Shown one piece after another: positions 15,144 to 31,493 of a DNA stretch of 44,638 nt. Positions within the stretch are counted from its first letter, which is position 1, and the number at the start of each line of letters is the position of its first letter. The stretch is from an uncultured Clostridia bacterium (GTDB lineage: Bacteria; Acidobacteriota; Aminicenantia; UBA2199): positions 1 to 44,638 of the forward strand of contig CAZTNO010000001.1 of the NCBI GenBank assembly GCA_964614865.1, read 5' to 3'. The position numbers and the translations under genes are program-made. The notes below the pieces were generated by a model, which saw nothing but the letters and a program-made list of their open reading frames with translations, made no database searches and was not told where the DNA came from.

Positions 15144-15171
15144 TTGACTTTTGCGTTGAATGCCTTAATAT
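15144..15171 (+). promoter_or_regulatory. Promoter candidate for the KamA/ATP-grasp operon, with upstream T-tracts
   Basis: TTGACT (15144-15149), 16 nt spacer, TAATAT (15166-15171). T7 (15116-15122) and T9 (15126-15134) tracts sit where an UP element would be. Confidence 0.4.
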
Positions 15172-15205
15172 ATGGGACGGCGGAACAAAACCGCGGAGGA
15201 ACCAA

Positions 15206-16510
15206 TTGAAAAAAGGCGCTCAGGTCGTGGTAGAGAAAGAAAACGAGATGACCAACAGCGAGGAGGCTGAGCCTCCAAGCACCCCGGCTCTCAAGAGCCC
15301 ACTCCCCGCCCCGCCCCCCCTCCTCTTTCCCGATCTGATCCCCTTTCCCCACTCCCGCGAAGGGCGTACTCCGTTCAAAAGCAGCACCCGCTCGCTGTTG
15401 TTCCTGAACCGCTTTTTTCCCGGGGTCACCCGGGCCGAGTGGAACCACTGGGAGTGGCAGTTGCGCCACAGCATCACCACCCGCCAGGAGCTGGCCCGCA
15501 TGCTGACCCTGTCGGAAGACGAATGCCAGCCCATGATCGGCGGCAACGAGTGTTTGCCGCTACGTATCACCCCCTACTACGCCAGTTTGCTGGATGCCGG
15601 CGACGCAAGCCAACCGCTGCGGCGATCGGTGGTGCCGGTCACCGCCGAGCACCTGATCTCGGCTGGCGAGGCTGCCGACCCGCTGGGTGAGGATGGCCAC
15701 AGTTGCGTGCCCGGCCTGGTTCACCGCTATCCCGACCGGGTCCTGTTCATGGTCACCGGCTTTTGCTCTACCTACTGCCGCTACTGTACCCGCTCGCGGC
15801 TGGTCGGCGACGTCAACAAGCGCCAACTCAGCCGCGACCAGTGGGACCAGGCCCTGGCCTACATCGAGAGCCATTCGCAGATCCGCGACGTGCTGCTGTC
15901 GGGAGGCGACCCGCTGACCTTGTCCGAGGAGAACCTGGAGTACCTGCTGACCCGCCTCAGCCGGATCCCCCACGTCGAGTTCCTGCGCATCGGGACCAAG
16001 GTGCCGGTGGTGCTGCCCCAGCGCATCACCTCTTCGTTGCTCTCGCTGCTCAAGCGATTCCGCCCCCTCTGGCTGAGCATCCACTTCACCCATCCCGACG
16101 AGATCACCCCCGAAACCGCCCAGGCTGGCGAGCGGCTGGCCGATGCCGGGTTGCCGCGCGGCTCCCAGCCCGTCCTGCTCAAGGGGATCAACGACGACGT
16201 GACGGTGATGCGGCGCCTGGTGCATGAACTGCTGAAGATCCGGGTCCGTCCCTATTACCTCTATCAGTGCGATCCGATCCTGGGCTCGTCCCACTTTCGC
16301 ACCCCGGTGGAGACAGGGCTGGAGATCATCCGCGGATTGCGGGGCCATACCACCGGGTATGCCGTGCCCCACTACGTGATCGACGCTCCCGGCGGGGGAG
16401 GCAAGGTGCCGCTGCTGCCCGACTACTACGCCGGTCGCGAAGGTAACGACGTCCTGCTGCGCAACTACGAGGGGCACCTCTACCGGTATCCCGATCCCTG
16501 CGGCAACTAA
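15206..16510 (+). CDS. KamA-family radical SAM aminomutase (lysine 2,3-aminomutase-like)
   Basis: CSTYCRYCTRS (CxxxCxxC), GGDPL, and HYVIDAPGGGGKVP (PLP-lysine motif). TTG 15206 has GGAGGA 6 nt upstream. ATG 15248 is an alternative start. Confidence 0.85.
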   Translation: MKKGAQVVVEKENEMTNSEEAEPPSTPALKSPLPAPPPLLFPDLIPFPHSREGRTPFKSSTRSLLFLNRFFPGVTRAEWNHWEWQLRHSITTRQELARMLTLSEDECQPMIGGNECLPLRITPYYASLLDAGDASQPLRRSVVPVTAEHLISAGEAADPLGEDGHSCVPGLVHRYPDRVLFMVTGFCSTYCRYCTRSRLVGDVNKRQLSRDQWDQALAYIESHSQIRDVLLSGGDPLTLSEENLEYLLTRLSRIPHVEFLRIGTKVPVVLPQRITSSLLSLLKRFRPLWLSIHFTHPDEITPETAQAGERLADAGLPRGSQPVLLKGINDDVTVMRRLVHELLKIRVRPYYLYQCDPILGSSHFRTPVETGLEIIRGLRGHTTGYAVPHYVIDAPGGGGKVPLLPDYYAGREGNDVLLRNYEGHLYRYPDPCGN

Positions 16511-16561
16511 ACAGCCCGACACCATGGACGGCGCCAGGCCTCCTGCGGGCAGGGGGAACCC

Positions 16562-17536
16562 ATGATCATCGGTTTGACCTACGATCTGAAAGACGATTAC
16601 CGTGAACTCGGCTTTTCGGCCGAAGCGGTGGCCGAACTGGACAGCGAGGAGACCGTCTCCGGGATCGAGACAGCCCTGGCCCAGCTCGGCTACGACCCGG
16701 TGCGCATCGGCAACCTGCGCCACCTGATGGGGCGATTGCTTTCGGGGGAGCGCTGGGAGCTCGTCTTCAACATCTGCGAGGGGATGTTCGGTATCGGCAG
16801 GGAAGCCCAGGTGCCGGCCCTGCTCGACGCCTTCCAGGTGAACTACACCTTTTCCGATCCGATGGTGCTGGCCCTGACCCTGCACAAAGGGATGGCAAAG
16901 AGGGTGGTGCGCGATGCCGGGGTGCCCACCGCCCCCTTCGCCCTGGTGGAACGGATCGAGGATCTGCCCTCGGTCGATTTGCCCTTCCCGCTGTTCGTCA
17001 AGCCGGTGGGCGAGGGGACCGGCAAGGGGATCACCGAACGCTCCCGTGCGGCCGATGCCGCCGGGCTGGAGCGCTCCTGCCGCGAATTGCTGGACACCTT
17101 CCACCAGCCCGTGCTGGTCGAAACCTACCTGCCGGGCCGGGAGTTCACCGTGGGGGTCATCGGCACCGGGCCCGAGGCCGAGGCCATCGGCGGCATGGAG
17201 GTTCTGTTCGCCCAAGGTGGGGGGGACATCTACTCGTACCAGACCAAACGCGACTACGAGGACCTGGTGGAGTACCGCCGTATCCCCGACGAGCTGGTCG
17301 CCTCGTGTCACCGGGTGGCCCTGGCGGCCTGGCGGGCCCTGGGCTGCCGCGACGGGGGGCGGGTTGACCTGCGGCTCGACGACCGGAACGTGCCGAACTT
17401 TCTCGAAGTCAACCCGCTTGCCGGGCTCAATCCCAAGGATTCGGATTTGCCCATCCTGTCCCGGTTGCACGGCATCTCCTACGGCGAACTGATCGGCCGC
17501 ATCGTCGATTCTTCCCGGCGGCGGATCGGGCTGTGA
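16562..17536 (+). CDS. D-alanine--D-alanine ligase-like ATP-grasp protein (paralog 1)
   Basis: IGLTYDLKDDY N-terminus, ATP-grasp core (PLFVKPVGEGTGKGI) and the E-x-N metal motif FLEVNPLAGL. Confidence 0.8.
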   Translation: MIIGLTYDLKDDYRELGFSAEAVAELDSEETVSGIETALAQLGYDPVRIGNLRHLMGRLLSGERWELVFNICEGMFGIGREAQVPALLDAFQVNYTFSDPMVLALTLHKGMAKRVVRDAGVPTAPFALVERIEDLPSVDLPFPLFVKPVGEGTGKGITERSRAADAAGLERSCRELLDTFHQPVLVETYLPGREFTVGVIGTGPEAEAIGGMEVLFAQGGGDIYSYQTKRDYEDLVEYRRIPDELVASCHRVALAAWRALGCRDGGRVDLRLDDRNVPNFLEVNPLAGLNPKDSDLPILSRLHGISYGELIGRIVDSSRRRIGL

Positions 17537-18507
17537 AGGGGACGGTCGTTATCCTGCACCAGCAGGTGCCGCCGGGCGCCCCCCCCGACGAGACCGACGT
17601 GCTGGTGGAAGCGGCGGCGGTCCGTTCCGCGCTCGAGACCCTGGGCTGGCGAGTGGTGGTGGTGCCCCTGGGCCTCGACCTGTCCCAGGCTGCTGAAGAA
17701 CTGCGCCAGGAAAAGCCTGCGGTCGTCTTCAACCTGGTCGAAACAATCGGCGGTGACGGCCGGCTGATCCATCTCGGCACCTCCCTGCTCGACCACCTCC
17801 GGATCCCCTATACCGGCTGTCCGACCCCGGCCATGTTCCTCACCTCGGGCAAGGTGTGGGGCAAGCGGGTGCTGCGGGCCGAGGGGATCCCCACGCCGCC
17901 GTGGGCGATACCCGGGGATGATGCCGCCCTGGAAGCCCTGACCGGCCACCCATGCATCATCAAGGCCGAGTGGGAGCACGCTTCGATCGGCCTCGACGCG
18001 GGGGCGGTGCTGACCCCGCAAACCCCCGGGGAGCTCGCCCGGCGGCTCGGCGAGCGGCAATCGAGGCAGGGCATCCCGCTGTTTGCCGAGGCATTCGTGG
18101 CCGGGCGGGAGTTCAACCTGTCGTTGCTGGCAGGGGAGGTGTTGCCCCCCGCCGAGATCCGCTTTCTCGATTTCCCGGCCGGAGCGCCGCAAATGGTCGA
18201 TTACCGGGCCAAGTGGGACGAACAGTCACCCGAGTACCACCAGACGGTGCGTTCGTTCGATTTCTCGACGTCCGACTCGGCGCTGCTCGCCGAATTGGCC
18301 GGGGTGGCCCGCCGCTGCTGGCAGGCGTTCGGTTTGCGCGGCTACGGGCGAGTCGACTTCCGCGTCGACGAACGGGGGCGACCGTGGGTGCTCGAAGTCA
18401 ACACCAATCCCTGCATCTCGCCCGATGGCGGATTCGTAGCGGCTGCGCAGCGTGCGGGGCTGGATTTGCCCGAAGTGGTAGCCCGCATCCTGGCCGACGC
18501 GAACTGA
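17533..18507 (+). CDS. D-alanine--D-alanine ligase-like ATP-grasp protein (paralog 2)
   Basis: GTG 17533 overlaps the upstream stop (GTGA). ATP-grasp core and the E-x-N motif VLEVNTNPCISP. Same length (324 aa) as paralog 1. Confidence 0.75.
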   Translation: MKGTVVILHQQVPPGAPPDETDVLVEAAAVRSALETLGWRVVVVPLGLDLSQAAEELRQEKPAVVFNLVETIGGDGRLIHLGTSLLDHLRIPYTGCPTPAMFLTSGKVWGKRVLRAEGIPTPPWAIPGDDAALEALTGHPCIIKAEWEHASIGLDAGAVLTPQTPGELARRLGERQSRQGIPLFAEAFVAGREFNLSLLAGEVLPPAEIRFLDFPAGAPQMVDYRAKWDEQSPEYHQTVRSFDFSTSDSALLAELAGVARRCWQAFGLRGYGRVDFRVDERGRPWVLEVNTNPCISPDGGFVAAAQRAGLDLPEVVARILADAN

Positions 18508-18517
18508 GGCGAAACGG

Positions 18518-18538
18518 AAAAATCCCGGTAGGCCGGGA
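18518..18538 (-). terminator. Intrinsic terminator candidate for the DUF4342 gene
   Basis: Minus-strand RNA forms UCCCGG-CCUA-CCGGGA followed by U5 (plus-strand A5 at 18518-22), 14 nt after the stop. It lies between convergent genes. Confidence 0.5.
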
Positions 18539-18551
18539 GCCCGGGGGCTGG

Positions 18552-18809
18552 TTATTCGGTCCGCTCGACCACAATGGTCAGGCGCGCGGCCAGGGCGGCG
18601 ATAGCCCCCACCGCGGCGAGTACTGGCAGAAATGCCGCCCCGACGATGCCCAGCGTCAACGGAATCTCGATCAGGGGTTTGCCGTCCTCGTTTTTGATGG
18701 TGATGCGGCGGATGTTGCCCTGGTGGATGAGTTCCTGAATCTTGTCAATCACTTGGCTGCCGCTGAGTTTGAACTCTTCATGGCGATTGCCGGTCTTTTT
18801 TTGTTCCAT
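18552..18809 (-). CDS. DUF4342 domain-containing small membrane protein
   Basis: EEFKLSGSQVIDKIQELIHQGNIRRITIKNEDGKPLIEIPLTLG followed by a C-terminal TM segment, which matches the DUF4342 family pattern. Confidence 0.75.
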   Translation of the reverse strand: MEQKKTGNRHEEFKLSGSQVIDKIQELIHQGNIRRITIKNEDGKPLIEIPLTLGIVGAAFLPVLAAVGAIAALAARLTIVVERTE

Positions 18810-18878
18810 GGTCCCTCCTGGCGAATGGCTCCAGTCTAGCAGAGCAACCCGCTCGTGTCCAGAACACCGGAGGTGTTG

Positions 18879-18907
18879 TTGACGGCCGCCGGTCGGTCCA
18901 GTATACT
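18879..18907 (+). promoter_or_regulatory. Near-consensus sigma70 promoter for the downstream hypothetical gene
   Basis: TTGACG (18879-18884), 17 nt spacer, TATACT (18902-18907). Confidence 0.5.
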
Positions 18908-18982
18908 GGGGGCGGACCTGGCCGATTGTCCTCCGCTGGGCGGGGGTTTTTTTTTCGGCCCGCCGTCCAGGAGCCCCGATCC

Positions 18983-19429
18983 GTGTGGAAAGACCGACTG
19001 CTGAAACTTCTGAGGTTGCGGGACAAGGGGGTCGTCTTCCGTCCCCAGCTCTACGACTTCCTCTACGTGCCCGACAAACACTCGGTGGGCTTGATCACCG
19101 AAATGAAGAACTCCGAGACCTACGGGGTGGCGTTCTTCCCCTCCCTGAACAACAACGAGAATTTTCACGCCCCCGTCCCCTTCAACGCCAAGACCACCCT
19201 GGTCATCCCCAGTTTCGAGAACCTGCTGTCGTTCGGCCACCAGCTGATGAAGCGGGAGAACTGGAGCAGTACCCATCCCGACGTCGTCACTTCGGAAACG
19301 TCTCCGCAGGGGGCCTGGAAGTTCAAGCTGTACGGGCGCATCACCTCACGCTTCAAGACCGCCGGTGACCTCTCCGACTACGACACCCTGCTCGAATTGA
19401 TCGCCGCCATGGTCAACCGGGGCGAATAA
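18983..19429 (+). CDS. Hypothetical protein with no family recognised
   Basis: The only long ORF here. GTG 18983 has AGGAG 9 nt upstream. The listed TTG 18926 start would translate a T9 tract. By eye, codon usage is more A/T-rich than in the neighbours. Confidence 0.45.
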   Translation: MWKDRLLKLLRLRDKGVVFRPQLYDFLYVPDKHSVGLITEMKNSETYGVAFFPSLNNNENFHAPVPFNAKTTLVIPSFENLLSFGHQLMKRENWSSTHPDVVTSETSPQGAWKFKLYGRITSRFKTAGDLSDYDTLLELIAAMVNRGE

Positions 19430-19433
19430 CCCC

Positions 19434-20852
19434 CTACCAGGCGATCAGCACCGGCGGGATCAGCAGCAGGAAGCTGAGCCCCATCAAAACCAGCATCAAC
19501 GGCAAAAACCAGCGCGCCCACCGTTCCCAGGGTATTCCCGCCACCGCCAGCACCCCCATGGTTACCGCCGATGTGGGCAGGATGGGGTTGACGAACTCGC
19601 AGAGCTGGAATGCCAGCACCGTGGTTTGCGGCGTGATGCCCACCAGGTCGCCCAGGGGGGCCATGATGGGCATGGTCAGGGAGGCCTGGGCCGTTCCCGA
19701 GTGGATGAAGAAGTTGATACCCGATTGCACCAGAAACATCACCTGGGCGGTGAGGAACTGCGGCAGGTGGGCGATCCCCGCCGCGGCCCCGGCCAGGATC
19801 GGATCGAGGATCTTGCCTTCCTGGGCGACGATCAGGATGGCCCGGCCGCCGGCGATCACGAAGGCCACGCCGACCATGTCTTTTGCTCCCGAGATCATCC
19901 CCTGCACGATCGTTCCCGGTCGCTGCCCGCCGACCAGGCCGGCGACGATGCCCATGCCCAGAAACAGGGCGGCGATCTCGTCGATAAACCACTGGTAGCG
20001 CAGGATGCCGAACACCAGCAGGCCCAAAGTGAGCAGGAAGACGGCCATCACCGCCGAGTGCCTCCCCCTCCAGGCCGGCATGGGCCCGGTGGGGTCGGTG
20101 GCGAGTACGAGGCGCTCCCGGTCGATGTCGGCCACCGGGCTCAGCGCCGGATTCTTGCGGATGCGGCGGGCGTAGATCATGACCGCCAGGATCATCACCG
20201 CCGTGCTGATGCTCCAGGCGATCAGGCGGTAGGTGAGCCCCGAAAAGAGGGGCACTCCGCTCAATGCCTGGGCGATCCCCACCGTGAAGGGGTTGAAGAA
20301 CGCGGCGGCGAATCCGGCGGCGGCGCCCAAAAAGGGGATGGCCACGCCGACGATCGAGTCGTACCCGAGCGAGAGGGCCAGCGGGATAAAGATCGGAATG
20401 AAGGCGATCGTCTCTTCCGACATGCCGAAAATCGACCCTGCCAGGGAAAAGATCACCATCAGCAGCGGGATCACCACCATCTGCCAGCGAGGGTGCTGGG
20501 AGAGGGCGCGGGCCAGCCGCCGGATGGCCAGGTCGAAGGCCCCGGTGGCCTGCAAGACCGTGAAGGCGCCGCCGATGACGAACAGGAATACGATGATCTG
20601 CATGCCCGAGGCGAATCCGCGGATCGGCGCGGTGAGCAGGATCTCGAGCCCGACGGGGGGCTGCTCGACAGGGTGGAACGAGCCCGGGACGGGGACCAGA
20701 CGGGTTTCGCCGCCGACCTCGCGGGAAATCCGGGTGAATTCGCCTGCCGGGATCAGCCAGGTCAAAACGACCATCAGGATCACCAGCAGGTACATCAGCA
20801 CTACCGGATGGGGGATGGCGAACTTCGCGGAGCGGGGCGAAGTCGGGGTCAT
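19434..20852 (-). CDS. YfcC-family / DcuC-like anaerobic C4-dicarboxylate-carrier superfamily membrane transporter
   Basis: N-terminal FAIPHPVVLMYLLVILMVVLTWLIPAGEF is characteristic of YfcC-family proteins. About 12 TM segments. The start overlaps the trxC stop. Confidence 0.75.
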   Translation of the reverse strand: MTPTSPRSAKFAIPHPVVLMYLLVILMVVLTWLIPAGEFTRISREVGGETRLVPVPGSFHPVEQPPVGLEILLTAPIRGFASGMQIIVFLFVIGGAFTVLQATGAFDLAIRRLARALSQHPRWQMVVIPLLMVIFSLAGSIFGMSEETIAFIPIFIPLALSLGYDSIVGVAIPFLGAAAGFAAAFFNPFTVGIAQALSGVPLFSGLTYRLIAWSISTAVMILAVMIYARRIRKNPALSPVADIDRERLVLATDPTGPMPAWRGRHSAVMAVFLLTLGLLVFGILRYQWFIDEIAALFLGMGIVAGLVGGQRPGTIVQGMISGAKDMVGVAFVIAGGRAILIVAQEGKILDPILAGAAAGIAHLPQFLTAQVMFLVQSGINFFIHSGTAQASLTMPIMAPLGDLVGITPQTTVLAFQLCEFVNPILPTSAVTMGVLAVAGIPWERWARWFLPLMLVLMGLSFLLLIPPVLIAW

Positions 20853-21289
20853 TCCGCCTCTCCGATCCAGGGGGCGAATGCCTTGCGCAGGTCGCTCAGC
20901 GAGAGAACGCCCGAGATCCGCTGTTGCTCGGTGCCGTTCACGAACAGCACCAGGGTCGGCACGCTCTGGATGGCAAAACTGTCGCGGAGCTTTTCAGCCG
21001 TGTCGATGTCGAGTTTGCCCACCCGGATGCCGGGATTCTCGGCGGCGAACTGGGCGAGGAGGGGGGCGAACAGGCGACAGGGGCCGCACCAGGTGGCCCA
21101 GAAATCGACCAGCGCGGGGCGGCGGTCACTGGTCAGAAAAGGGGGGAAGGTTTCGGCAGTCAGATCGATCGGCGGGGCCCCCTGCTCGGGCAGGGGTTGC
21201 CGGCACTTGCCACAGACGGGACGGCCGGGGTGGGGGGTGGCGATGCGGTTTTTGCCACCGCAATGGGGGCAGGTGACGATCGGGGGCAT
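20849..21289 (-). CDS. trxC: Thioredoxin 2 (N-terminal zinc finger plus thioredoxin fold)
   Basis: CPHCGGKN...CGKCRQPL zinc-finger motifs followed by the WATWCGPCR active site. Confidence 0.9.
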   Translation of the reverse strand: MPPIVTCPHCGGKNRIATPHPGRPVCGKCRQPLPEQGAPPIDLTAETFPPFLTSDRRPALVDFWATWCGPCRLFAPLLAQFAAENPGIRVGKLDIDTAEKLRDSFAIQSVPTLVLFVNGTEQQRISGVLSLSDLRKAFAPWIGEAE

Positions 21290-21310
21290 GGGGCTCCTCC
21301 TGGGCTGATG

Positions 21311-22489
21311 TCAACGGTTGTGGGTCATGTCGGCCAAGGCGCGGGCACAGCGCAGCAGCGCCTGGCGAAGGTTTGGGTCGGGCTCGGTTTCGGCGGCGAT
21401 CTGCACGTCCCGCCAGCTGGCGGTATGCTCGAGTTCCACCAGGGCATTTGCCGCGGCCAAACGCACCGAAGGGGCCCGGTCGCGCAAGTTGCCGGCGATC
21501 CGCTCTTTGGCTCCCCAGCTGCGTATCTCCAGCAGGGTGGCAATGGCCGCCCGTTTCTGGTCCGGGTCGGAGTTCTTGATCGAGCTGCCGATCGCTTGAA
21601 AGCAGGCCGTTTCCTTGGCCCGCAGGAAAGAGTCGAACAGCGATTCGGTTGCCGTTCGCCGGGGCCGGACCACGGAGGGCGAATAGGTGACCAGCTCCCG
21701 GCGCAGGGTCCAGCGGACCATGCGCGGGACCATCCAGCGCAGCCCGGGGGTGTTCTCGGGGTGGCCCACCGACAGGAAGACGCGGCCCTTGCCGGCTTCG
21801 CCCCAGGCCAGAAAGGTTTTGCCGGGGGTGAGCCCTTTGGGCGCGTCGTTTTCCAGGTAAACATCGCTTTGCATGGTCGCCAGGGGGGTGAACGGGGCGC
21901 CCCCCTCTTTGGCAACCAGCACCGGCCCCTCGAAGTACTGCATGAAGGCCTGCCCCATTCCGGCGAATTCGGGGAACACCTCGATGGCCGCCGGGGTCAG
22001 GGCGAAGCGGACCAGCCCATGCCCCCGCTCGTCGTGTTCGCGGTCGATGGCCTCCAGCCCGGCGAGGCGAAAGCACGTGTAGTCGGGGGTGTCGGAGAGC
22101 ATGTAACTGCCGGCGCACAAGCCCACCACCCCCTTTCCCCGCTCCCGCACAAAAGCCAGCACCTTTTCCTGCCCCAGGGCACCCAGGTTGTCCATTTGCC
22201 TCATCCCCCCGCCACCGGGAAAGACCAGGGCCTCGCAGCGGTCCAGTTCGCCCCGGACGATATCTGCGGCGGTGACGATCACGGGGTCGATGGCGGAATC
22301 GATCTTCAGCGCCTCGACCGCATCGGACAAACACTCGGGATCGGCCCCGAGGCCTGAAAAGACGGCCACTCTAAACTGCGGCGCCGGAACAGACCGGTTT
22401 TCTCCCTCCTCGCTGGCGGCGAAAGCGAGCGCTGCCACCAGCAGGAGGGTTGCGGTCACCCCGGACCCGATTTTTCGATGGGTATTCAT
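21311..22489 (-). CDS. Secreted BPL_N-like (class I glutamine-amidotransferase-like fold) protein with C-terminal HEAT repeats
   Basis: Signal peptide ...LLLVAALAFA. The block VAVFSGLG...LVFPGGGG...VVGLCAGSYM resembles BPL_N/GATase1-like domains. The C-terminal PSVRLAAANALVELEH is HEAT-like. Confidence 0.5.
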   Translation of the reverse strand: MNTHRKIGSGVTATLLLVAALAFAASEEGENRSVPAPQFRVAVFSGLGADPECLSDAVEALKIDSAIDPVIVTAADIVRGELDRCEALVFPGGGGMRQMDNLGALGQEKVLAFVRERGKGVVGLCAGSYMLSDTPDYTCFRLAGLEAIDREHDERGHGLVRFALTPAAIEVFPEFAGMGQAFMQYFEGPVLVAKEGGAPFTPLATMQSDVYLENDAPKGLTPGKTFLAWGEAGKGRVFLSVGHPENTPGLRWMVPRMVRWTLRRELVTYSPSVVRPRRTATESLFDSFLRAKETACFQAIGSSIKNSDPDQKRAAIATLLEIRSWGAKERIAGNLRDRAPSVRLAAANALVELEHTASWRDVQIAAETEPDPNLRQALLRCARALADMTHNR

Positions 22490-23589
22490 GGTTCACTCCC
22501 CTTGCCTGGAATTGGCTCGATTACGGTTGTGGCGGGACCTGCCAGGGTGGCGAGCCGCTCCAGCAGGGACTCGATGGCCCGGTCGAGGGGGACCCGTTCC
22601 ATGTCCCGGCCGCGCTGGAACAGGAAGCCCTGCTTGCGGGAGAACGCCACCCCCAGGTCGGCTTCGGCGGCCTCGCCCGGCCCGTTGACCTCGCAGCCCA
22701 TCAGGGCCACTTTCAGTGGCAAGTCGCCCAGCCCCCGCCGTCGCACCTCGCCTTCGAACTCCTCGACCCGCGGGATCAGATCGATGCTGGTCCGGCCGCA
22801 GGTGGGGCAGGAGATCACCTCCAGCCCCCGTCGGGAGAGGCCAAGGAAACGCAGGATCATGCGTCCGACCTCCACTTCGCGCAGAGGGTCGGCGGTCAGC
22901 GAGACGCGCAGGGTGTTGCCGATCCCGGCAAGGAGCAGGGGAGCGAGACCCAGCGACGACTTGACCGCGCCCCCCAGCAGGGTGCCGGCCTCGGTCAGCC
23001 CGATGTGCAGCGGGTAATCGCAGGCCTGATCGACGGCCCGGTAGGCGGCGATGGTTTCGCGGACATCGGACGACTTCACCGACAGCTTCAGCAGGGTGAA
23101 CCCCTGGTCTTCGGCCTCATGGACCAGATCCATCAGGGAGTCGACCAGAGCCTGGAGTCGGTTTTTGCCCTCCCTCAGGTGGCGCTTCTCGATCGAGCCC
23201 GAGTTCACCCCCAGTCGCAACGGGACCCGGTGTTCCCCCGCGGCCCGCAGCACGTCGTGGAATCGCTTCGCTCCGCCGATGTTGCCCGGGTTGATGCGCA
23301 CGGCAGCCGCCCCCCGCTCGATGGCGCCGATGGCCAAACGGGCGTCGAAGTGGATGTCGGCGACCACCGGCAGGTCGGATCCCGCGGTGATGGCGGCAAA
23401 GGCCGGTAGCGAGTGCTGGTCGGGCACCGCCACGCGAACGATGTCGCAGCCGGCGCGGGCCAGCGAAGCGATCTGCTGTAAAGTGGTGGCTACATCGCCG
23501 GGGGGGGTGGTGGTCATCGACTGCACCGACACGGGATGGTCGCCGCCGATCCCCACCCGGCCGAGATGGATCTCTCGTTTGCGGCTCAT
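22486..23589 (-). CDS. ispG: 4-hydroxy-3-methylbut-2-en-1-yl diphosphate synthase
   Basis: GGDHPVSVQSMTTT, the RVAVP region, and the SCPTCGRT and MGCEVNGPGE Fe-S cluster motifs. Confidence 0.95.
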   Translation of the reverse strand: MSRKREIHLGRVGIGGDHPVSVQSMTTTPPGDVATTLQQIASLARAGCDIVRVAVPDQHSLPAFAAITAGSDLPVVADIHFDARLAIGAIERGAAAVRINPGNIGGAKRFHDVLRAAGEHRVPLRLGVNSGSIEKRHLREGKNRLQALVDSLMDLVHEAEDQGFTLLKLSVKSSDVRETIAAYRAVDQACDYPLHIGLTEAGTLLGGAVKSSLGLAPLLLAGIGNTLRVSLTADPLREVEVGRMILRFLGLSRRGLEVISCPTCGRTSIDLIPRVEEFEGEVRRRGLGDLPLKVALMGCEVNGPGEAAEADLGVAFSRKQGFLFQRGRDMERVPLDRAIESLLERLATLAGPATTVIEPIPGKGSEP

Positions 23590-25022
23590 CGCTCGGGTTC
23601 GGGCATGCGGATCACCAGCAGCCGGGGTTCGGTCATCTCGGCGATCGCCCAGCGAACCCCTTCCCTCCCCTGGCCCGAATCCTTGACGCCGCCGTAGGGC
23701 ATCGGGTCGAGTCGCCAGGCGGGGACTTCGTTGGCCATCACCCCGCCCACTTCCAGCGTTTCGAAGGCGGTAAAGATTCGCCCCACATCGCGGGTGAACA
23801 CCCCAGCCTGCAAGCCGAAATCGCTGTCGTTGACCCGACGCAGGGCGTCGGAAAAGTCGTCGTAGGGGGTGACGGTGACCAGCGGGGCAAAGACCTCGCG
23901 GCAGTTCACCTCCAGGTCAGCTCGGGCTCCGGTGATCACCGTCGGGGTCATCACCGCCCCGTGGATCTCGCCCCCGGCAAGGACGGTAGCCCCCGCCCGC
24001 CGGGCCGAGGACAGAAATCGGGCCAGGCGTTGGCCGTCCTTTTCGCTGATCAGCGAGCAGAGATCGCTGGTTTCGTCGAGAGGATGGCCCGTTTTCAGCG
24101 CCGCGACCCGGGGCAAAAACGAGGTCAGGAAACGGTCGAACACCGAGGTGTGGACCAGGATGCGCTGCACCGAAATGCAGCTCTGGCCCGAAAACCAGAA
24201 ACCACCCTGAACGCAACGCTCGGCGGCGTGGTCGATTTCGGCGTCGCCATGCACGATCACCGCGGCATTGCCACCCAGTTCCAGGGTCACCCGCTTCTTG
24301 CCCGCCCGCCGTTTCAGGTCCCAGCCGACTTCGGCCGAGCCGGTGAAGGTGAGCATGCGGAAACGCGCGTCTTCGGCCAGCGGCGCGGCCAGAGTGGCAT
24401 CGAGGGGCAATACTGTCAAACCGCCTTCCGGCAAGCCGCTTTCGGCGGCGATTTCTGCCAGGGCCAGGGCGCTGAGTGGGGTCTGCGATGCGGGTTTGAG
24501 CACCAGCGGGCAGCCGGCAGCGATGGCCGGGGCGAGTTTGTGGGCCACCTGGTTGAGGGGGAAGTTGAAGGGGGTGATGGCGGCGACCGGACCCAGCGGG
24601 AACCGGCGCAGGATCGCCTGCCGGCCAAGCCCGGCCGGGGCGACCTCCATCGGCACGACTTCTGCCGGGATGCGCACGGCTTCCTCGGCGGCACCGGCAA
24701 AAATCGACTGCGAACGGTTGACCTCGATGCGGGCCTGGCGGATCGGTTTTGCCGCCTCCAGCGCCATTCTTTCTGCCAACTCTTCGGCCCGACCGGCAAT
24801 TCCAGCGGCGATCCGGCGTAAAATATCGGCTCTGTGGAAGGGGGGGAGCCGGGACATGGCCCCGGCGGCGGCCACGGCCCGATCTGTGGCTTCGGCCAGG
24901 TGGCTGGCGTCGGCGAAGTGGGCGACCCCGGCCTCGCTCCCGTCGTAGGGGCAACGGATCGTGCGCGGGCTCCCCTTCCTCCGGTCGCCGGCCAAAAACA
25001 TCAGTGTTTCTTTCGGGGGCAT
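23586..25022 (-). CDS. NAD(P)-dependent aldehyde dehydrogenase family protein
   Basis: Catalytic Glu in LELGGNAAVIV and catalytic Cys in FWFSGQSCISVQR. A Shine-Dalgarno-like AGGAAG lies upstream of ATG 25022. The stop overlaps the ispG start. Confidence 0.85.
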   Translation of the reverse strand: MPPKETLMFLAGDRRKGSPRTIRCPYDGSEAGVAHFADASHLAEATDRAVAAAGAMSRLPPFHRADILRRIAAGIAGRAEELAERMALEAAKPIRQARIEVNRSQSIFAGAAEEAVRIPAEVVPMEVAPAGLGRQAILRRFPLGPVAAITPFNFPLNQVAHKLAPAIAAGCPLVLKPASQTPLSALALAEIAAESGLPEGGLTVLPLDATLAAPLAEDARFRMLTFTGSAEVGWDLKRRAGKKRVTLELGGNAAVIVHGDAEIDHAAERCVQGGFWFSGQSCISVQRILVHTSVFDRFLTSFLPRVAALKTGHPLDETSDLCSLISEKDGQRLARFLSSARRAGATVLAGGEIHGAVMTPTVITGARADLEVNCREVFAPLVTVTPYDDFSDALRRVNDSDFGLQAGVFTRDVGRIFTAFETLEVGGVMANEVPAWRLDPMPYGGVKDSGQGREGVRWAIAEMTEPRLLVIRMPEPER

Positions 25023-25050
25023 GGGCTCTTCCTCGAAACGGTGCTGCCCT

Positions 25051-25698
25051 CTAGAGGCGGAAGGCGAGGCCTGCCAAAACCGCCGGACTCCACGAGGTCG
25101 GCTTCACCCCCAGGTAGGCGTGGCGCACGCTGACGACCAGCGCCAGGTTGCGGGAAAGGGCCCCTTCGGCCCGCACACCGACAAAGAGCGTCGCACACGC
25201 CTTGGCCTCCGGAGGGGCGATGATGGTGCGGCTACCTAGCCTCGACACCAACACTTGCTTGCCGGTGCCGGTGAGGAAGGCCAGCCCGACTCCGGCCTGG
25301 ACGGCGACTTCGATTCGCCGCCCCGAAATCAGCCGGGTCTGGGCGGTCAATCCGGCTCTCATCTGCCCGGCGGTGTCGGCGACAACCGTGTCGAGATCGC
25401 TGGGATCCTCCATGGTGGCTTGGCCTCCGGGGATCAGCCAACCCTCCAATCCGAGCTGAAAAATGTTTCCCACCGGCAAGGCGATCGCCAGACCGATCTG
25501 GGGGAGGCGGTGGGCGCGGATGATGGCGAAGTCGTTGCTGCCAAACTCGTACTTTGCGGCCGAACCCTGATCGGGGAGGAACGAGATTCCGCCCCAGGCA
25601 GTCACGATGGGCTTTTTGCCGGCGGCGGTCAGGGGCAGCATGGTGGTCAGGCAGATCAGCGCGATCCAGCCCAATCGGCTGGCGGGGCTACGGGTCAT
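25051..25698 (-). CDS. Putative small outer-membrane beta-barrel protein
   Basis: Signal peptide (LICLTTMLPLTAAG), then an alternating hydrophobic/polar pattern rich in G/A/L consistent with beta strands. Its start is 1 nt from the protease stop. Confidence 0.45.
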   Translation of the reverse strand: MTRSPASRLGWIALICLTTMLPLTAAGKKPIVTAWGGISFLPDQGSAAKYEFGSNDFAIIRAHRLPQIGLAIALPVGNIFQLGLEGWLIPGGQATMEDPSDLDTVVADTAGQMRAGLTAQTRLISGRRIEVAVQAGVGLAFLTGTGKQVLVSRLGSRTIIAPPEAKACATLFVGVRAEGALSRNLALVVSVRHAYLGVKPTSWSPAVLAGLAFRL

Positions 25699-25699
25699 G

Positions 25700-26665
25700 T
25701 CACACCCCCTCGACGCCGCGCTTGGTGGCTTTCATGCCCGTCAGGCGCAGCACCCACTCGGCAAAGCCCGAGGTGCCCATGCGGATGCGAAAGTAGCCCC
25801 GGTCGCCCCAGGATGCTCCCCACGAGTTCTTGACGATCCAGCAGTTCTCGGCATCGTCGTAGCCGCACAACACCACGAAATGCCCCCCTTCGTACTGCCC
25901 GGCGGCGGTGGGGGCGTAGACTCCGTCCCGATAGTAGTAGAGATCGGAATAGACCTCCATCCAGGCGGCCAGTGGCCCCTGTTGCAGGGCGCTCCGGATC
26001 GCCGCCCGATCCTCCCCCCCCTGGCAGACCCAGTTCACGGTCGAGGCGCGGAAGGTGCGGTCCTGCCAATCCTCGCAGGGATCGCAGGGGTCGTCTTGTG
26101 CGGTGTAGGGTTGACAGGACTCGGGGGCGACTCCCGACTGCCGCAGATAGGTGGCGGCATCCCAGGCGTACCCTCCGTCGCAATCTCCGCCATTCGAGCA
26201 CGACAGGAGTTGTTGCTCCGACAAATCGGGGACGACGTCGGGGCGCTGGTGTTCGATGCGGAAGATGGTTTCGGCCAGCCCGACGACGGCGAACACCCAG
26301 CACGAACCGCAGGTGCGCTGGTCTTTCACCGGGGTCAGCCAGTTGGTCCCCTGGTGGTTGCGCCAGTCGATGGCGGGGGGAAGGAGCGCCGCTCTCGCCG
26401 ACGGCGACACCGCGGCGGGGTCGAATAGCGGAGTGCGGGCCCCCGGCAAGCGACGGCGCAGGGTCAGGGGGAGGGAACTCACCTCGGAGGGGGCGGCCGT
26501 CCAGCACTGTCCTTCGTGGGCGATGGCCTGGCGGATGCGTTGCAGTTCGGTTGTTTCTGCGTCGAAGGGGAGGGGCTCTTCAGCTGCGACAAAACCGCTG
26601 CCGATGGGGGCCAGCAGGATCATCGCCGCCGCCAGCAAGCGCAGCGACCGGAGTTGCTGTTTCAT
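25700..26665 (-). CDS. Secreted papain-like cysteine peptidase (family C1)
   Basis: Signal peptide MKQQLRSLRLLAAAMILLAPIGSG. Catalytic triad context: DQRTCGSCWVFA (Cys), GGHFVVLCGYDD (His), VKNSWGASWGDRGYFRI (Asn). The listed ORF start at 27289 is an upstream extension overlapping the next gene on the opposite strand. Confidence 0.85.
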   Translation of the reverse strand: MKQQLRSLRLLAAAMILLAPIGSGFVAAEEPLPFDAETTELQRIRQAIAHEGQCWTAAPSEVSSLPLTLRRRLPGARTPLFDPAAVSPSARAALLPPAIDWRNHQGTNWLTPVKDQRTCGSCWVFAVVGLAETIFRIEHQRPDVVPDLSEQQLLSCSNGGDCDGGYAWDAATYLRQSGVAPESCQPYTAQDDPCDPCEDWQDRTFRASTVNWVCQGGEDRAAIRSALQQGPLAAWMEVYSDLYYYRDGVYAPTAAGQYEGGHFVVLCGYDDAENCWIVKNSWGASWGDRGYFRIRMGTSGFAEWVLRLTGMKATKRGVEGV

Positions 26666-26838
26666 GTGTGTGGATCTCCCTGGTTGGATTGAAGTGGCGG
26701 CAACGGGGAAAAACGCCCCCCGGCTTGGCCAGCGGGGGTCACCCCGTTTCTCCGATAGGGCAGGTCGTTGCCATGGCCCGATGGTACCACCGGACCGCCC
26801 GAAATGGAAGGGGTTTGCCGCCTCTGGGATTGATTGAA

Positions 26839-26868
26839 TTGACAACCCCGCACCCCGTTTTTTATAAT
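26839..26868 (+). promoter_or_regulatory. Consensus sigma70 promoter abutting the ATG of the alkaline-phosphatase-family gene
   Basis: TTGACA (26839-26844), 18 nt spacer, TATAAT (26863-26868), then 5 nt to ATG 26874. Confidence 0.5.
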
Positions 26869-26873
26869 ACGGG

Positions 26874-28220
26874 ATGCGACGAATTATCCTGTTACTCTTG
26901 GTTCCATGGGCGATCACCCCGTTGTTTTTCTGCGATGGGGCAAAGCGGCAAGTTACCCAGGAAAAACCGGTCGTTGTCCTTTTGGCCCTGGATGGAGCCG
27001 ACTGGGCGCTGATCGATCCGTTGATCGCGCAAGGAAAGCTCCCACTTTTCAAGGAACTCAAACAAACGGGCGCGTGGGGGGCCCTGCGCACGGCCACTCC
27101 GGCAAAAAGCCCCGTCATCTGGACCACCATTGCCACCGGTAAAGTTCCTGGCAAACACGGGGTCGAGGATTTTCGGGCCACCCGGATCAATTCCCGGGGC
27201 AAGCATCCGCTGAGCAGCAGTCTCGATATCCGCGAGCCGATGCTGTGGGAGATGCTTGAAAGCCAGGGGCGACGGAGCGTGCTGGTCAATTGGTATCTGA
27301 GTTTTCCTCCCCAGCCGCTACGCGGGGTGAACGTGTCCGACTACTTCGCATTTAGTGCGCTCGGGGGCGGCAATCTGGGGGGAGGGGCGCTGGACCGGAC
27401 CGTCTTTCCCGGGGGGATAGCCGAAAAAATCGCCCGGGGGCTGGATCGGGACTATCTCCGCGTGCTCCGGCGAATGAACTTGCCCGATTACCCCGCCCTC
27501 TATGAAAAACAGCATCCCGGTGGCCGTTTCACCGATTTTCCGGTGTTCAAAGAGTGGCCCGGTTTCGTGTTGGAGGAAGGGGTGGTGATCGACGTGGCCC
27601 ACCGGTTGGTCCGCAGTGAGGAGTTCGACCTGTTTGCGGTCTACCTGGAACTGGCCGACAAGGTACAGCACTTTGCCTACATGTCTTTTGTCGACGCAGA
27701 TTTCCAGCAAACCCTGCTGCGGGAGTCGAGGGATGGCCGGGTGCCAGAGGCGCTCGAGGCCGAGGCTTACCGGCGCATCGCCGACATCCTGTGTCCGGTG
27801 TACCAGAACCTGGAAAGGATCCTGCGTAGCTATCTGGAGTGCGAAAAGTATCGCCACGCGACTTTCTTCATCGTGTCCGACCATGGCTTCTCGCTGATCG
27901 TGCGGGAAAACGCGGTCATTTACAACCACATCGGTCAGGACAAGGCTCCCGACGGTATCCTGATCGTCCGGGGGCCCCAGGTCAAGCCAGGCAAGATTCT
28001 CCGCGCAACCATCCGCGACATCGCTCCATCCATCCTGTACGTGCTCGGCTTGCCTCAGGACCTCGGTGCAGATGGTCACCCCCTGCGCCGGGTGTTCTCC
28101 ATGCGGGGGAATAACCGCTCTATCACCTACCACAAACGGGATCTGCGGAAGCAGGGCGACAACCACCCGGTCGACGAGAAAAAACTTCAGGAGTTGCGGG
28201 CCCTGGGTTACATCAATTGA
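26874..28220 (+). CDS. Alkaline phosphatase superfamily protein (type I phosphodiesterase / nucleotide pyrophosphatase-like)
   Basis: LALDGADW metal-binding Asp. PAKSPVIWTTIATGKVPGKHGV aligns with the NPP nucleophile block PTKTFPNHxxxxTGxxPxxHG. VSDHGF is present, as is an N-terminal signal or anchor. Confidence 0.8.
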   Translation: MRRIILLLLVPWAITPLFFCDGAKRQVTQEKPVVVLLALDGADWALIDPLIAQGKLPLFKELKQTGAWGALRTATPAKSPVIWTTIATGKVPGKHGVEDFRATRINSRGKHPLSSSLDIREPMLWEMLESQGRRSVLVNWYLSFPPQPLRGVNVSDYFAFSALGGGNLGGGALDRTVFPGGIAEKIARGLDRDYLRVLRRMNLPDYPALYEKQHPGGRFTDFPVFKEWPGFVLEEGVVIDVAHRLVRSEEFDLFAVYLELADKVQHFAYMSFVDADFQQTLLRESRDGRVPEALEAEAYRRIADILCPVYQNLERILRSYLECEKYRHATFFIVSDHGFSLIVRENAVIYNHIGQDKAPDGILIVRGPQVKPGKILRATIRDIAPSILYVLGLPQDLGADGHPLRRVFSMRGNNRSITYHKRDLRKQGDNHPVDEKKLQELRALGYIN

Positions 28221-28295
28221 CGGGGGGGGTGCGGGACGCCGGCAGCCGGATCAGCAGTAGCAGGGCCAGCGCCGCAAAGCAGAAGGGCTGTCACC

Positions 28296-31200: not shown

Positions 31201-31493
31201 CAGCCGCTCAGGCGGTAGAGCCGCCCCACCTCCAGCGAGACCTCGGCAGAAGCCACCGTCGAACTCGTCCATTCGCGGTGCTCGATGGCCAGGCTGGCCT
31301 GGCCGCTGTGGGCCCGGGGGGCGAGCCCCACCTGGCCGGAGCGGTCGCCGGCGACCTGCCATGCCGCGGGCAGGGGGCCACTCCCGGGCGTTTCGAACCC
31401 GGCGTTGGCCAGGGGGAGAATACGATCCGCAGCGGGGGCGAGCGAGAAAAACACGAAGCCGGACAGGCCAAGCAGCAGGAGGATTTGCTTCAT
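28296..31493 (-). CDS. Large secreted multidomain protein: N-terminal CBM4/9-like module, central Ntn-hydrolase (phospholipase-B-like / peptidase C45-like) domain, C-terminal M1-peptidase-like region without HEXXH
   Basis: Start MKQILLLLGLSGFVFFSLAPA (signal peptide) at 31493. LANAGFE...VWFDDIALEEV resembles a CBM. LHKCSGFLATG...GQIFMW and NGLYTNDWLIGD resemble PLB-like Ntn hydrolases. GTFLLHQLRLFLGNSLFAKVMAEAHRSFAGKPVTNDQLIASFERTSG resembles the post-catalytic part of M1 peptidases. Upstream of 31493 the 1555-aa ORF is antisense to the CDF gene. Confidence 0.6.
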   Translation of the reverse strand: MKQILLLLGLSGFVFFSLAPAADRILPLANAGFETPGSGPLPAAWQVAGDRSGQVGLAPRAHSGQASLAIEHREWTSSTVASAEVSLEVGRLYRLSGWVRTAGAETREIDRYPTPVSATLTMQSFPFTNHAPSCGADTDWKRVETLFIATTARDRVQLHLGLNGPARGSVWFDDIALEEVEDITALIPAETVRWHGPAFRFADQGWTFVHIEGKPYDRGVQYGSLMAEEIVAFIDKIAFQHNGDKPGDGWQNRRVLADALMLRLFDPEYLEEMRGIADGVTRRNQAPRCKSGPVDLLDIVTLNAGIDVDYVASALPRTPHALSGQNFFKAEDDLKVPDRLHKCSGFLATGKATRSGEIVMGQIFMWGGYTGVDWKVICDVEPDRGHRLVYQTFPGGIHSGSDFYQNDAGIMIGETTVMQTGFDSSGTPQANRIRRAAQYASSIDEVTRILTEQNNGLYTNDWLIGDAKTDEIAILLLGTKKHKLWRSKNNDFPGGTDGFLWSVNNAKDAEVRKEYATSPLNAPFDLTFSPSNRDLAFFEYYRQFRGRIDTDNAAELWASSPINRPHACDGKITTSEMARKMVFMAHFGKVTLREKFPGRSGRLIPDHPDATPHLTLGYTVFSPQFITAKLKALKAATEETRKPAPPPDTSTCADFFRFDRRALWQNTVYPASDRENWFVSATAAYWNILNNLPAGTAALPSLTETWNEQTNRMLYLASREGPVKPIEASRRYDRYGSYQLPRIRGTFLLHQLRLFLGNSLFAKVMAEAHRSFAGKPVTNDQLIASFERTSGQSLRPRIIPWLERDDLPDLKFSAHCLPRDNRWVIDLVVEQQTPYLLTTTVAVLDEKGTTLSPLTLGPGENRQQLVFDRRPQAITLNHGMDFPLARREHFQWNNLFDDFKKLRIVYGTSRQIEANHTLALNYRTVLADTFTETLVPIAKDSEMTLPELEQHDLILLGGPADNQLTAATLDRLGISWQRNVFRWQGKTYAGDQDGLALALPSPYHPQRVVYLLLANSALQLHFMTQRHQPLPTWAIFQRDKVVEKGTLPPPGLEITFPEPEKETHP

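Follow-up and report, generated by a model that had tools for sequence, protein, structure and literature searches.

The two Ddl-fold ATP-grasp ligases (G1 and G2) encoded behind a KamA-family aminomutase in this 44.6-kb window (the whole stretch of DNA analyzed here) are best read, we think, though with only somewhat more confidence than doubt, as parts of a self-contained four-enzyme route to a small cytoplasmic metabolite, the fourth member being a GNAT N-acetyltransferase whose gene is unlinked. An earlier note on this DNA had treated the first three genes as a complete trio; this did not hold, as a fourth conserved gene, that for the GNAT, has been displaced to a site well downstream. The features concerned are these:

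15144-15171, + strand: sigma-70-like promoter candidate, TTGACT-16-TAATAT, from a consensus scan
15195-15199, + strand: Shine-Dalgarno GGAGG, read from the sequence, 6 nt 5' of the aminomutase TTG
15206-16510, + strand: KamA-family radical-SAM/PLP aminomutase gene, 434 aa, TTG start
16562-17536, + strand: G1, Ddl-fold ATP-grasp ligase gene, 324 aa
17533-18507, + strand: G2, Ddl-fold ATP-grasp ligase gene, 324 aa, GTG start
18523-18538, - strand: GC-rich hairpin, from a terminator scan and direct reading of the sequence
18552-18809, - strand: DUF4342 ORF, convergent
32899-33387, + strand: GNAT N-acetyltransferase gene, 162 aa, orthologue of the fourth cassette gene
33384-34448: CorA gene, 3' of the window GNAT gene

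The arrangement of the first three genes is as the earlier note had it, with ORF coordinates that place the aminomutase, a 51-nt spacer (16511-16561) and then two ATP-grasp genes of equal length in succession. The motifs CSTYCRYC, PGGGGK, FLEVNPLAG and VLEVNTNPC are all found in the translations, and the overlap of G2 with G1, in which the G1 stop and G2 start share GTGA, can be read from the sequence. The promoter-like element at 15144-15171 is likewise present, as a consensus match only, at 9 of 12 positions, and it lies in a 4.1-kb region in which five promoter-type sites are seen versus 0.5 expected from shuffles; if used, it would leave a 5' UTR of ~27 nt. The proposed end of the trio, against a convergent gene and a terminator, stands as to the gene (DUF4342) and not as to the terminator: the T-run of the hairpin is on the minus strand, so that the hairpin would terminate the DUF4342 gene and serve KamA-G1-G2, at best, as a bidirectional stop.

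The aminomutase has the Pfam domains Radical_SAM and LAM_C, scores 348.5 bits against the NCBIfam subfamily model TIGR00238 (cut-off 199.2), and matches 2A5H in the PDB with E 5e-129. Among equivalog models the top one is AblA, at 468 bits, which is below its cut-off of 525.4. Set against the lysine 2,3-aminomutase (LAM) of Clostridium subterminale, the reference for residue numbering, the catalytic apparatus is fully retained and invariant in 80 orthologues: C187/C191/C194 of the CxxxCxxC [4Fe-4S] motif correspond to LAM C125/C129/C132, R196 to the α-carboxylate arginine R134, and K400, in PGGGGK, to the PLP-binding lysine K337. Also invariant are D356 and D393, the counterparts of LAM D293 and D330, which we take to bind the ε-ammonium group of lysine, and which in glutamate 2,3-aminomutase are presumably replaced by Lys and Asn. 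The comparison of substrate residues that had been suggested in the earlier note thus points to β-lysine rather than β-glutamate, and β-lysine is the likely product, judged from sequence. Other identities were tried and rejected, namely glutamate 2,3-aminomutase (TIGR04368, 405.8 bits against a cut-off of 650) and arginine 2,3-aminomutase (TIGR04468, 380.5 against 600), the lysine-type Asp pair being kept, and EpmB (TIGR03821, 266 bits, under both its cut-off of 369 and the AblA score). The cassette enzyme differs from clostridial LAM in two respects: in the alignment of the 80 orthologues the zinc-site Cys268 is missing, with D, S or N in its place, and the C-terminal domain of ~47 aa is absent, where LAM has the further cysteines of its zinc site, the orthologues stopping 0-22 residues past LAM position 369.

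The ligases were described in the earlier note as Ddl-like paralogues, an assignment that is upheld by the Pfam domain Dala_Dala_lig_C in both (9e-23 in G1, 1.3e-16 in G2) and that fares less well as to paralogy, since G1 and G2 are merely 28% identical, about as far from one another as each is from Ddl. AlphaFold2 models of the two proteins (pLDDT 91.5 for G1 and 93.2 for G2) have Ddl structures as their leading Foldseek matches, with TM values of 0.74-0.78 and 0.75-0.78, respectively, and show the three-domain fold common to Ddl and VanA. Nine ATP-grasp residues, numbered as in DdlB (the reference sequence of which was verified against 2DLN), are invariant in 74 G1 sequences, namely K97, K144, E180, E187, K215, R255, D257, E270 and N272; the same nine are kept in 68 G2 sequences, with one exception that has D at 270. 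With all ATP, Mg and acyl-phosphate catalytic residues so retained, both ligases are probably active.

On the other hand, neither is an ordinary D-Ala-D-Ala ligase, the outcome that the earlier note had named as one that would refute its reading. At 24-29% identity to Ddl and VanA, the two proteins fall under every Ddl and Van cut-off (146.7 bits for G1 and 124.3 for G2 against the top Ddl model, PRK01372, with its cut-off of 243), and the D-Ala-binding triad E15/S150/Y216 is gone from both: at its three positions G1 has A, T and a residue that varies, whereas G2 has D, A and an invariant W. At Ddl S281/L282, G1 has S/D, the D being invariant, and G2 has a variable residue and G. The substrate pockets are accordingly unlike that of Ddl and strongly unlike each other, and the pocket of G1 is acid-rich (E16', E68 and D282), which fits a cationic substrate, without identifying one. 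The genomic setting differs as well, with an aminomutase as neighbor rather than mur or fts genes.

That the three genes belong together, as had been proposed, is borne out by their order, kept in 67 of the 71 loci with enough downstream sequence, and by fusion proteins. The carriers are found in the Aminicenantes, Acidobacteriota, Desulfobacterota, Bacteroidales, Omnitrophota, Gammaproteobacteria and Alphaproteobacteria; genomic contexts are unrelated between lineages, and the spread, over both diderm and monoderm-labelled lineages, is patchy and transfer-like. Pairwise distances of the KamA, G1 and G2 proteins correlate (Mantel p ≤ 0.002). The aminomutase has at least 510 relatives in species-representative genomes, which may include non-cassette homologues, and for G1, cluster representatives at 50% identity include 713 with E ≤ 1e-30, some of which may belong to non-cassette ATP-grasp families. 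Fusions are seen of KamA with G1 (P0379, full-length at 746 aa; P0092, shorter at 693 aa and possibly frameshifted), of G2 with the GNAT (P0267 and P0339) and, at least 15 times among the top 150 cluster representatives, of G1 with G2, the last of which suggests that the ligases act together. Because they join neighboring genes, such fusions may reflect simple stop-codon loss instead of pathway order.

The translational coupling, equal length and very frequent fusion of G1 and G2, together with the established fact that Ddl is a homodimer, would also suit a single heterodimeric enzyme, one that forms a single bond or else builds a β-lysine oligo- or poly-amide that is capped by the GNAT. We give this reading only a small chance, as each of the two proteins has the full set of catalytic residues, their pockets are strongly different, and loci with KamA and G1 exist from which G2 is absent.

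The gene neighborhood holds none of the known partners of KamA-family enzymes, as the earlier note had observed: there is no efp in the window or in 81 related loci, and no NRPS or AblB gene near the cassette. The related loci do not share a gene for an exporter, a target protein or a precursor peptide, envelope genes such as mur, fem or that of a flippase are likewise not conserved beside the cassette, and none of the four proteins matches a PADLOC defence model.

What is conserved instead is the acetyltransferase. Elsewhere a GNAT of ~165 aa, its gene lies directly 3' of G2 in 47 of 61 loci and within the cassette locus in 53 of the 61. In the window it is found 14.4 kb from G2, where it can be recognized by 59% identity over 160 aa to the GNAT that stands 3' of G2 in one related locus, L007 (tblastn, E 3e-58), and by the CorA gene that lies 3' of the GNAT both here and in related loci. 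Its PDB match is 2R7H, a "putative D-alanine N-acetyltransferase" (E 3.8e-40), and the top NCBIfam model for the cassette GNAT is RimI, at 50.8 bits and under cut-off. An identity as AblB was rejected, the L007 orthologue scoring 19.2 bits against the TIGR03827 cut-off of 205.1. Because the gene is non-adjacent both here and in L087, the locus most closely related to the window, acetylation may be optional or separately regulated. In a few cassettes a histone-deacetylase-type domain sits beside the GNAT, a sign, perhaps, that acetylation is part of a more elaborate cycle.

The resemblance to RimI bears also on the idea that a protein, and not a small molecule, is the acceptor: here the ATP-grasp enzymes, in the manner of RimK or tubulin-tyrosine ligase, would ligate β-lysine, perhaps with a second residue, onto a target such as EF-P or a ribosomal protein, and the GNAT would then acetylate the product. 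β-Lysine is indeed established as serving EF-P modification in γ-proteobacteria, and a small protein of ~100 aa is encoded 5' of KamA on the same strand in 10 of 80 loci (directly 5' in most of the 10), with a poly-acidic tail in one copy. This protein has no Pfam or NCBIfam family, however, and it is confined to those 10 loci, no target gene being consistently linked; efp is absent from the window and the 81 loci, KamA is far under the EpmB cut-off, and the compact Ddl architecture of G1 and G2 is that of small-molecule ligases. We consider protein modification improbable.

Slightly less probable still is an envelope modifier, in which the ligases would put β-lysine on a peptidoglycan precursor or other envelope component, much as the enterococcal ATP-grasp D-aspartate ligase acts in cross-bridges. 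Such cross-bridge ligases are well established, and among solved structures as among sequences, those nearest to G1 and G2 are Ddl and VanA, both of which serve peptidoglycan synthesis. Weighing against it are the lack of conserved envelope genes beside the cassette, the patchy, transfer-like spread over diderm and monoderm-labelled carriers, and the acetyltransferase, for which a cross-bridge would not call. As for mere housekeeping, that is, an EpmB-type aminomutase for EF-P adjacent by chance to two redundant D-Ala-D-Ala ligases, its chances are close to nil: despite the public annotation of the ligases as "D-alanine--D-alanine ligase", it is already contradicted by the sub-threshold Ddl scores, the lost D-Ala-binding triad, an EpmB score below both the EpmB cut-off and the AblA score, and a gene order that is strict across phyla and accompanied by fusions.

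In the four-enzyme route that we favor, the KamA-family enzyme would convert L-lysine to β-lysine, an activity that we infer from the residues present. G1 would then form an acyl-phosphate and the first amide bond, involving β-lysine; that it is the first ligase, acting directly on β-lysine, is probable in view of the KamA-G1 fusions and the loci that have KamA and G1 only. G2, coupled to G1 in translation and often part of one polypeptide with it, would form a second amide bond to give a tripeptide-like compound, possibly a short oligomer, and the RimI-like GNAT would acetylate a free amine and so remove one positive charge. The earlier note had envisaged a β-peptide, compatible solute or envelope modifier as the possible product class.

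A literature search returned no description of a KamA-G1-G2(-GNAT) cassette, in keeping with the earlier impression that the architecture has no characterized pathway, and the known systems resemble it only in part. One is AblA/AblB, which makes N-ε-acetyl-β-lysine in methanogens and some bacteria by means of a GNAT and a lysine 2,3-aminomutase from the KamA branch to which the cassette enzyme also belongs, and is similarly small and self-contained, AblA being the aminomutase's top equivalog model. The cassette differs in that two ATP-grasp ligases stand between aminomutase and GNAT, the aminomutase is under the AblA cut-off, and the AblB model rejects the GNAT, that of L007 having 19 bits where 205 are required. 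In EpmA/EpmB, too, β-lysine from a KamA-family aminomutase is ligated to an amine, as is proposed for the cassette, whose ligases, however, are ATP-grasp enzymes and not LysRS paralogues, and whose loci all lack efp nearby. In pyrrolysine biosynthesis, the radical-SAM lysine mutase PylB acts first and the Ddl-like ATP-grasp enzyme PylC then couples the product of that rearrangement with another amine, an order that resembles that of KamA and ligase. PylB is neither a KamA-family nor a PLP enzyme, PDB sequence searches gave no PylC match for G1 or G2, and the window has no pylD, pylS or pylT and no tRNA.

Alike in overall logic are the pathways to glutathione (GshA/GshB or the fused GshF), NAAG and NAAG2 (an acetyltransferase with RIMKLA/B) and NAGGN (Ngg, a GNAT-ATP-grasp fusion), in which ATP drives the formation of two amide bonds in succession, in some cases along with N-acetylation, to yield a small cytoplasmic metabolite, a likeness that draws on established knowledge of those pathways rather than on homology. 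Ligase-ligase and GNAT-ligase fusions occur in them and in the cassette alike. The cassette stands apart in its building block, a radical-SAM-derived β-amino acid, and in ligases of the Ddl branch, for which no sequence relation to the glutathione, NAAG or NAGGN enzymes was detected past the ATP-grasp superfamily.

The role of the product is the weakest part of our explanation. By analogy with N-ε-acetyl-β-lysine or N-acetylglutaminylglutamine amide, it would most likely be that of a stress-protective solute of anaerobes; many of the samples come from places with no obvious salinity, such as soils, aquifers and digesters, which makes for a poor fit to a classic salt osmolyte. More speculatively, and with the odds rather against it, the product may represent a new metabolite class, an N-acetylated β-lysine tripeptide-like compound that serves as general cytoplasmic protectant or cofactor in place of the glutathione- or ectoine-like molecules of aerobes; it would do so in numerous anaerobic phyla known from uncultured members, among them Aminicenantes, Desulfobacterota, Bacteroidales and Omnitrophota.

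To our knowledge, only a few fates of β-lysine have been described, these being EF-P modification, the N-ε-acetyl-β-lysine osmolyte, lysine fermentation and NRPS antibiotics; the cassette would add a fifth, independent of both ribosome and NRPS, in organisms that are mostly anaerobes without cultured members and whose small-molecule physiology is largely unknown. As only four soluble enzymes and lysine as the starting material are involved, the pathway is open to direct test by heterologous expression. The analysis also brings out a systematic mis-annotation, with G1 and G2 labelled as D-Ala-D-Ala ligases in thousands of database entries and the homologous GNAT structure 2R7H labelled, in the PDB, as a putative D-alanine N-acetyltransferase.

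In the window, KamA (a KamA-family radical-SAM/PLP aminomutase) is followed on the same strand by two Ddl-fold ATP-grasp ligases, here called G1 and G2 in gene order. This trio, together with the GNAT acetyltransferase that accompanies it in most related loci, is referred to below as the cassette.

Features of the cassette and its immediate surroundings in the window
15144-15171: promoter-like site, TTGACT-16-TAATAT, 9/12 consensus match
15206-16510, plus strand: KamA, 434 aa, TTG start
16562-17536, plus strand: G1, 324 aa
17533-18507, plus strand: G2, 324 aa
18523-18538: hairpin, with its T-run on the minus strand
18552-18809: DUF4342 gene, convergent to the trio
32899-33387: GNAT orthologue, 59% identical to the copy in related locus L007 (E 3e-58)

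The trio of co-directional genes described in the earlier note is real: the ORFs, the 51-nt gap between KamA and G1, the 4-nt GTGA overlap of G1 and G2 and the equal length of the ligases were all recovered, and every motif it quoted is present in the translations. Pfam places Radical_SAM and LAM_C domains in KamA and Dala_Dala_lig_C in both ligases. The proposed promoter-like element is present as a consensus match (the region holds five sites of such score, against 0.5 expected), and GGAGG lies 6 nt 5' of the TTG start. The trio was also said to end at a convergent gene and a terminator; the convergent gene is there, but the T-run of the hairpin is on the minus strand, which makes the hairpin the terminator of the DUF4342 gene and at best a bidirectional stop for the trio. 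Searches of the window returned no tRNA and no Rfam riboswitch or other RNA element. An exact-sequence look-up of KamA found no record. Among named proteins, G1 is most similar to one labelled Candidatus Aminicenantes (86% identity), which makes this group the probable origin of the window.

When species-representative genomes were scanned, at least 510 aminomutase relatives were obtained, of which the best 80 loci were kept. Nearly all are MAGs, and the carriers include Aminicenantes, Acidobacteriota, Desulfobacterota, Bacteroidales, Omnitrophota, Verrucomicrobiota, Gammaproteobacteria and Alphaproteobacteria. The gene-neighbourhood comparison proposed earlier shows the trio to be co-conserved: where at least 2150 nt lie 3' of KamA (71 loci), KamA, G1 and G2 occur in this order in 67, and a further locus (L004) has the trio with a split G1. 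Two more have KamA and G1 only (L020, L059); L058 likewise has just these two genes but, being short, falls outside the 71. In L037 KamA stands alone beside a sigma-54 activator. The three KamA-G1 variants lack both G2 and the GNAT gene, and one of them is in a gammaproteobacterial MAG of 39% GC. Each neighbouring gene pair of the cassette is also found fused: G1-G2 in at least 15 of the 150 top-ranking cluster representatives (clusters at 50% identity), KamA-G1 in P0379 (746 aa), and G2-GNAT in P0267 and P0339. Another candidate KamA-Ddl fusion, P0092 (693 aa), was set aside in favour of the cleaner P0379, as it is shorter than the two proteins summed, lies on a 3.5-kb contig and is possibly a frameshift artefact. 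The pairwise distance matrices of KamA, G1 and G2 correlate (Spearman rho 0.19-0.40, Mantel p <= 0.002), and the flanking genes vary from lineage to lineage; by these comparisons the cassette genes are tightly co-inherited.

The aminomutase aligns over 363 residues with lysine 2,3-aminomutase (LAM) of Clostridium subterminale (PDB 2A5H; E 5e-129). When 80 orthologues were aligned to that sequence, the side-chain comparison suggested in the earlier note came out as lysine-type: the three cluster cysteines, R134 (the alpha-carboxylate binder), K337 (the PLP binder), D293 and D330 are invariant, corresponding in the window to C187/C191/C194, R196, K400, D356 and D393. The two aspartates hold the epsilon-ammonium group of lysine in LAM and are replaced in glutamate 2,3-aminomutase; beta-lysine is the most probable product of these enzymes. 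In KamA and its relatives the Cys of the LAM zinc site (Cys268) and the last ~47 residues of LAM are missing and there is a variable N-terminal extension, and of five NCBIfam models only the subfamily model scores above its cut-off; on these grounds KamA is placed in a distinct clade of its family. The earlier note had allowed for KamA being EpmB, a reading contradicted by a score below the EpmB cut-off and by the higher score with AblA.

NCBIfam scores of the window KamA
AblA: 468 bits, cut-off 525.4
Glutamate 2,3-aminomutase: 406 bits, cut-off 650
Arginine 2,3-aminomutase: 380 bits, cut-off 600
EpmB: 266 bits, cut-off 369
TIGR00238 (subfamily): 348.5 bits, cut-off 199.2

Nor are the ligases ordinary D-Ala-D-Ala ligases, the other outcome that the note had allowed for: G1 (146.7 bits) and G2 (124.3 bits) fall short of a cut-off of 243, and of the cut-off of each curated Ddl or Van model. 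A fold search with their AlphaFold2 models (pLDDT 91.5 and 93.2) returned Ddl structures only (TM 0.74-0.78, 24-29% identity) and gave no clue to the substrate. In an alignment of 74 G1 and 68 G2 sequences to E. coli DdlB, the DdlB sequence being checked against 2DLN, the ATP, Mg and catalytic residues K97, K144, E180, E187, K215, R255, D257, E270 and N272 are invariant, with the sole exception of one G2 orthologue that has D at position 270; both ligases are therefore probably active enzymes. Neither ligase keeps the D-Ala-binding triad E15/S150/Y216: at these three positions G1 has A, T and a residue that varies, and G2 has D, A and a fully conserved W. Position 282 is an invariant Asp in G1, which keeps E68, and Gly in G2, which has Leu or Phe at 68. 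G1 and G2 are only 28% identical to each other and are neither Ddl enzymes nor redundant duplicates. In most members of a less common G2 subtype (12 loci), DE at positions 15-16 becomes AS, a hint that the second substrate varies. In PLSDB, tblastn matched G1 to no plasmid at E <= 1e-30. A separate family of ~600-720 aa (P0389, P0390, P0396, P0409 and others) has two tandem ATP-grasp modules 30-43% identical to G1, neither half being G2-like, and may be part of a related pathway.

Clustering of neighbouring ORFs revealed a fourth gene that the earlier note, in describing a three-gene unit, had overlooked. It encodes a GNAT acetyltransferase of ~165 aa directly 3' of G2. In 61 loci at least 650 nt of sequence follow G2; 47 of these have the GNAT gene next to G2, 6 have it at another place in the locus and 8 lack it. 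The window orthologue is followed by a CorA gene, as in related loci, and ~14.4 kb separate this pair (32899-34448) from the trio. The intervening genes (18508-32898), unrelated to the cassette, encode DUF4342, a DcuC-family carrier, thioredoxin, GcpE, an aldehyde dehydrogenase, a phosphodiesterase, a large secreted protein and a CDF transporter. Because L087, the closest relative contig, has the same trio-side arrangement and no adjacent GNAT, the split is a stable trait of the lineage, an old rearrangement rather than an assembly error.

The cassette GNAT is not AblB, the L007 copy scoring below the cut-off of the AblB model. It does match PDB 2R7H (E 3.8e-40), a structural-genomics entry named 'putative D-alanine N-acetyltransferase'; we found no support for this name, which probably derives from neighbouring mis-annotated 'Ddl' genes. 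The source organism, presumably a Desulfovibrio, could serve as a cultured model for the cassette. In five loci (L038, L062, L064, L065, L067) a protein combining a weak GNAT domain with a histone-deacetylase/acetylpolyamine-amidohydrolase-type domain sits between G2 and the cassette GNAT; in L062 and L067 this protein and the GNAT form a single chain of 750-755 aa. A deacetylase beside an acetyltransferase suggests a cycle of reversible acetylation on the product.

A pathway can be proposed from the LAM-chemistry residues, two ligases of predicted competence with non-Ddl pockets, the GNAT, and the co-inheritance and fusions. KamA would convert lysine to beta-lysine; G1, placed next to the aminomutase step because of the KamA-G1 fusion and the minimal KamA-G1 loci, would form a first acyl-phosphate-mediated amide bond involving beta-lysine; G2 would form a second; and the GNAT would acetylate a remaining amine. 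It is unlikely that the two ligases act instead as a single heterodimeric or polymerising enzyme. As to the product of two successive ligations, the cassette is self-contained and brings no genes for export or for a target, which speaks for a small molecule of the cytoplasm; most economically, this would be a stress-protective solute by analogy with N-epsilon-acetyl-beta-lysine, NAGGN and NAAG. Protein modification we also consider improbable: the cassette brings no target gene, and no efp gene occurs in the window or related loci. Modification of the envelope is slightly less probable still, as no envelope gene recurs near the cassette. An ordinary Ddl working beside EpmB can be dismissed almost entirely, G1 and G2 being below all Ddl cut-offs and KamA below that of EpmB.

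The cassette would work much as the AblA/AblB pathway does, but with two ligation steps inserted, and it resembles the two-ligase peptide pathways of glutathione and NAAG, its building block being a radical-SAM-derived beta-amino acid; the chemistry implied is an extension of known logic. Its proteins are assigned by sequence to the KamA family and the Ddl-like ATP-grasp superfamily, and none qualifies as EpmB, AblA (at the cut-off), a glutamate aminomutase, Ddl or AblB. The cassette is widespread and mis-annotated. The earlier note knew of no characterised pathway of this architecture, and full-text literature searches likewise returned no description of it, an absence that is no proof of non-publication; the only related literature found, reviews on NRPS/RiPP beta-amino acids and AblAB genome notes, does not describe it. 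As for the known partners of KamA enzymes, which the earlier note did not find here, there is no efp in the window or loci, the GNAT is not AblB, and no NRPS recurs in the loci. Nor does any exporter, precursor peptide or envelope gene recur there. A link to EF-P was rejected on the lack of efp in the window and loci and the sub-cut-off EpmB score, lysine fermentation on the lack of recurring kamDE, kdd, kce or kal-like genes nearby, and a defence system on the lack of a PADLOC match.

In the related loci labelled Aminicenantes or 'Chrysiogenales' (L002-L013, L035) the cassette lies directly 3' of pstSCAB-phoU, which is on its own strand. The pst genes of L001 and its genes for PhoB/PhoR-like regulators are also upstream of the cassette, on the other strand, and its response-regulator gene and the cassette are divergent. 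Such a neighbourhood may hint at control linked to phosphate, or at synteny peculiar to the lineage. In a subset of loci (L019, L033, L041 and L058; also L016, L020, L027 and L060) KamA is preceded on its own strand by an NtrC-type activator of sigma-54 that has a receiver domain, together with a small protein of ~90-120 aa. The small protein belongs to no Pfam or NCBIfam family and has a conserved core, GI(V/I)xPxDWDExGN; in L020 its end is a long poly-Glu/Asp tail.

Elsewhere in the window, a 1555-aa ORF (28296-32963, minus strand) is probably over-extended at its 5' end, where it overlaps a well-supported cation-efflux (CDF) gene (31755-32816, plus strand); a signal-peptide-like stretch (MKQILLLLGLSGFVFF) that follows an internal Met points to a secreted product of ~1070 aa, whose only match, to phospholipase B, is weak. 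A 167-aa ORF (18926-19429, plus strand) has coding-like GC3, no Pfam or NCBIfam family and a 148-aa counterpart in L087. The region's highest-scoring promoter-like site (18879-18907, 10/12) lies upstream of this ORF, and a hairpin with a T-run (18926-18947) overlaps the annotated start, so that the true start is probably further downstream.
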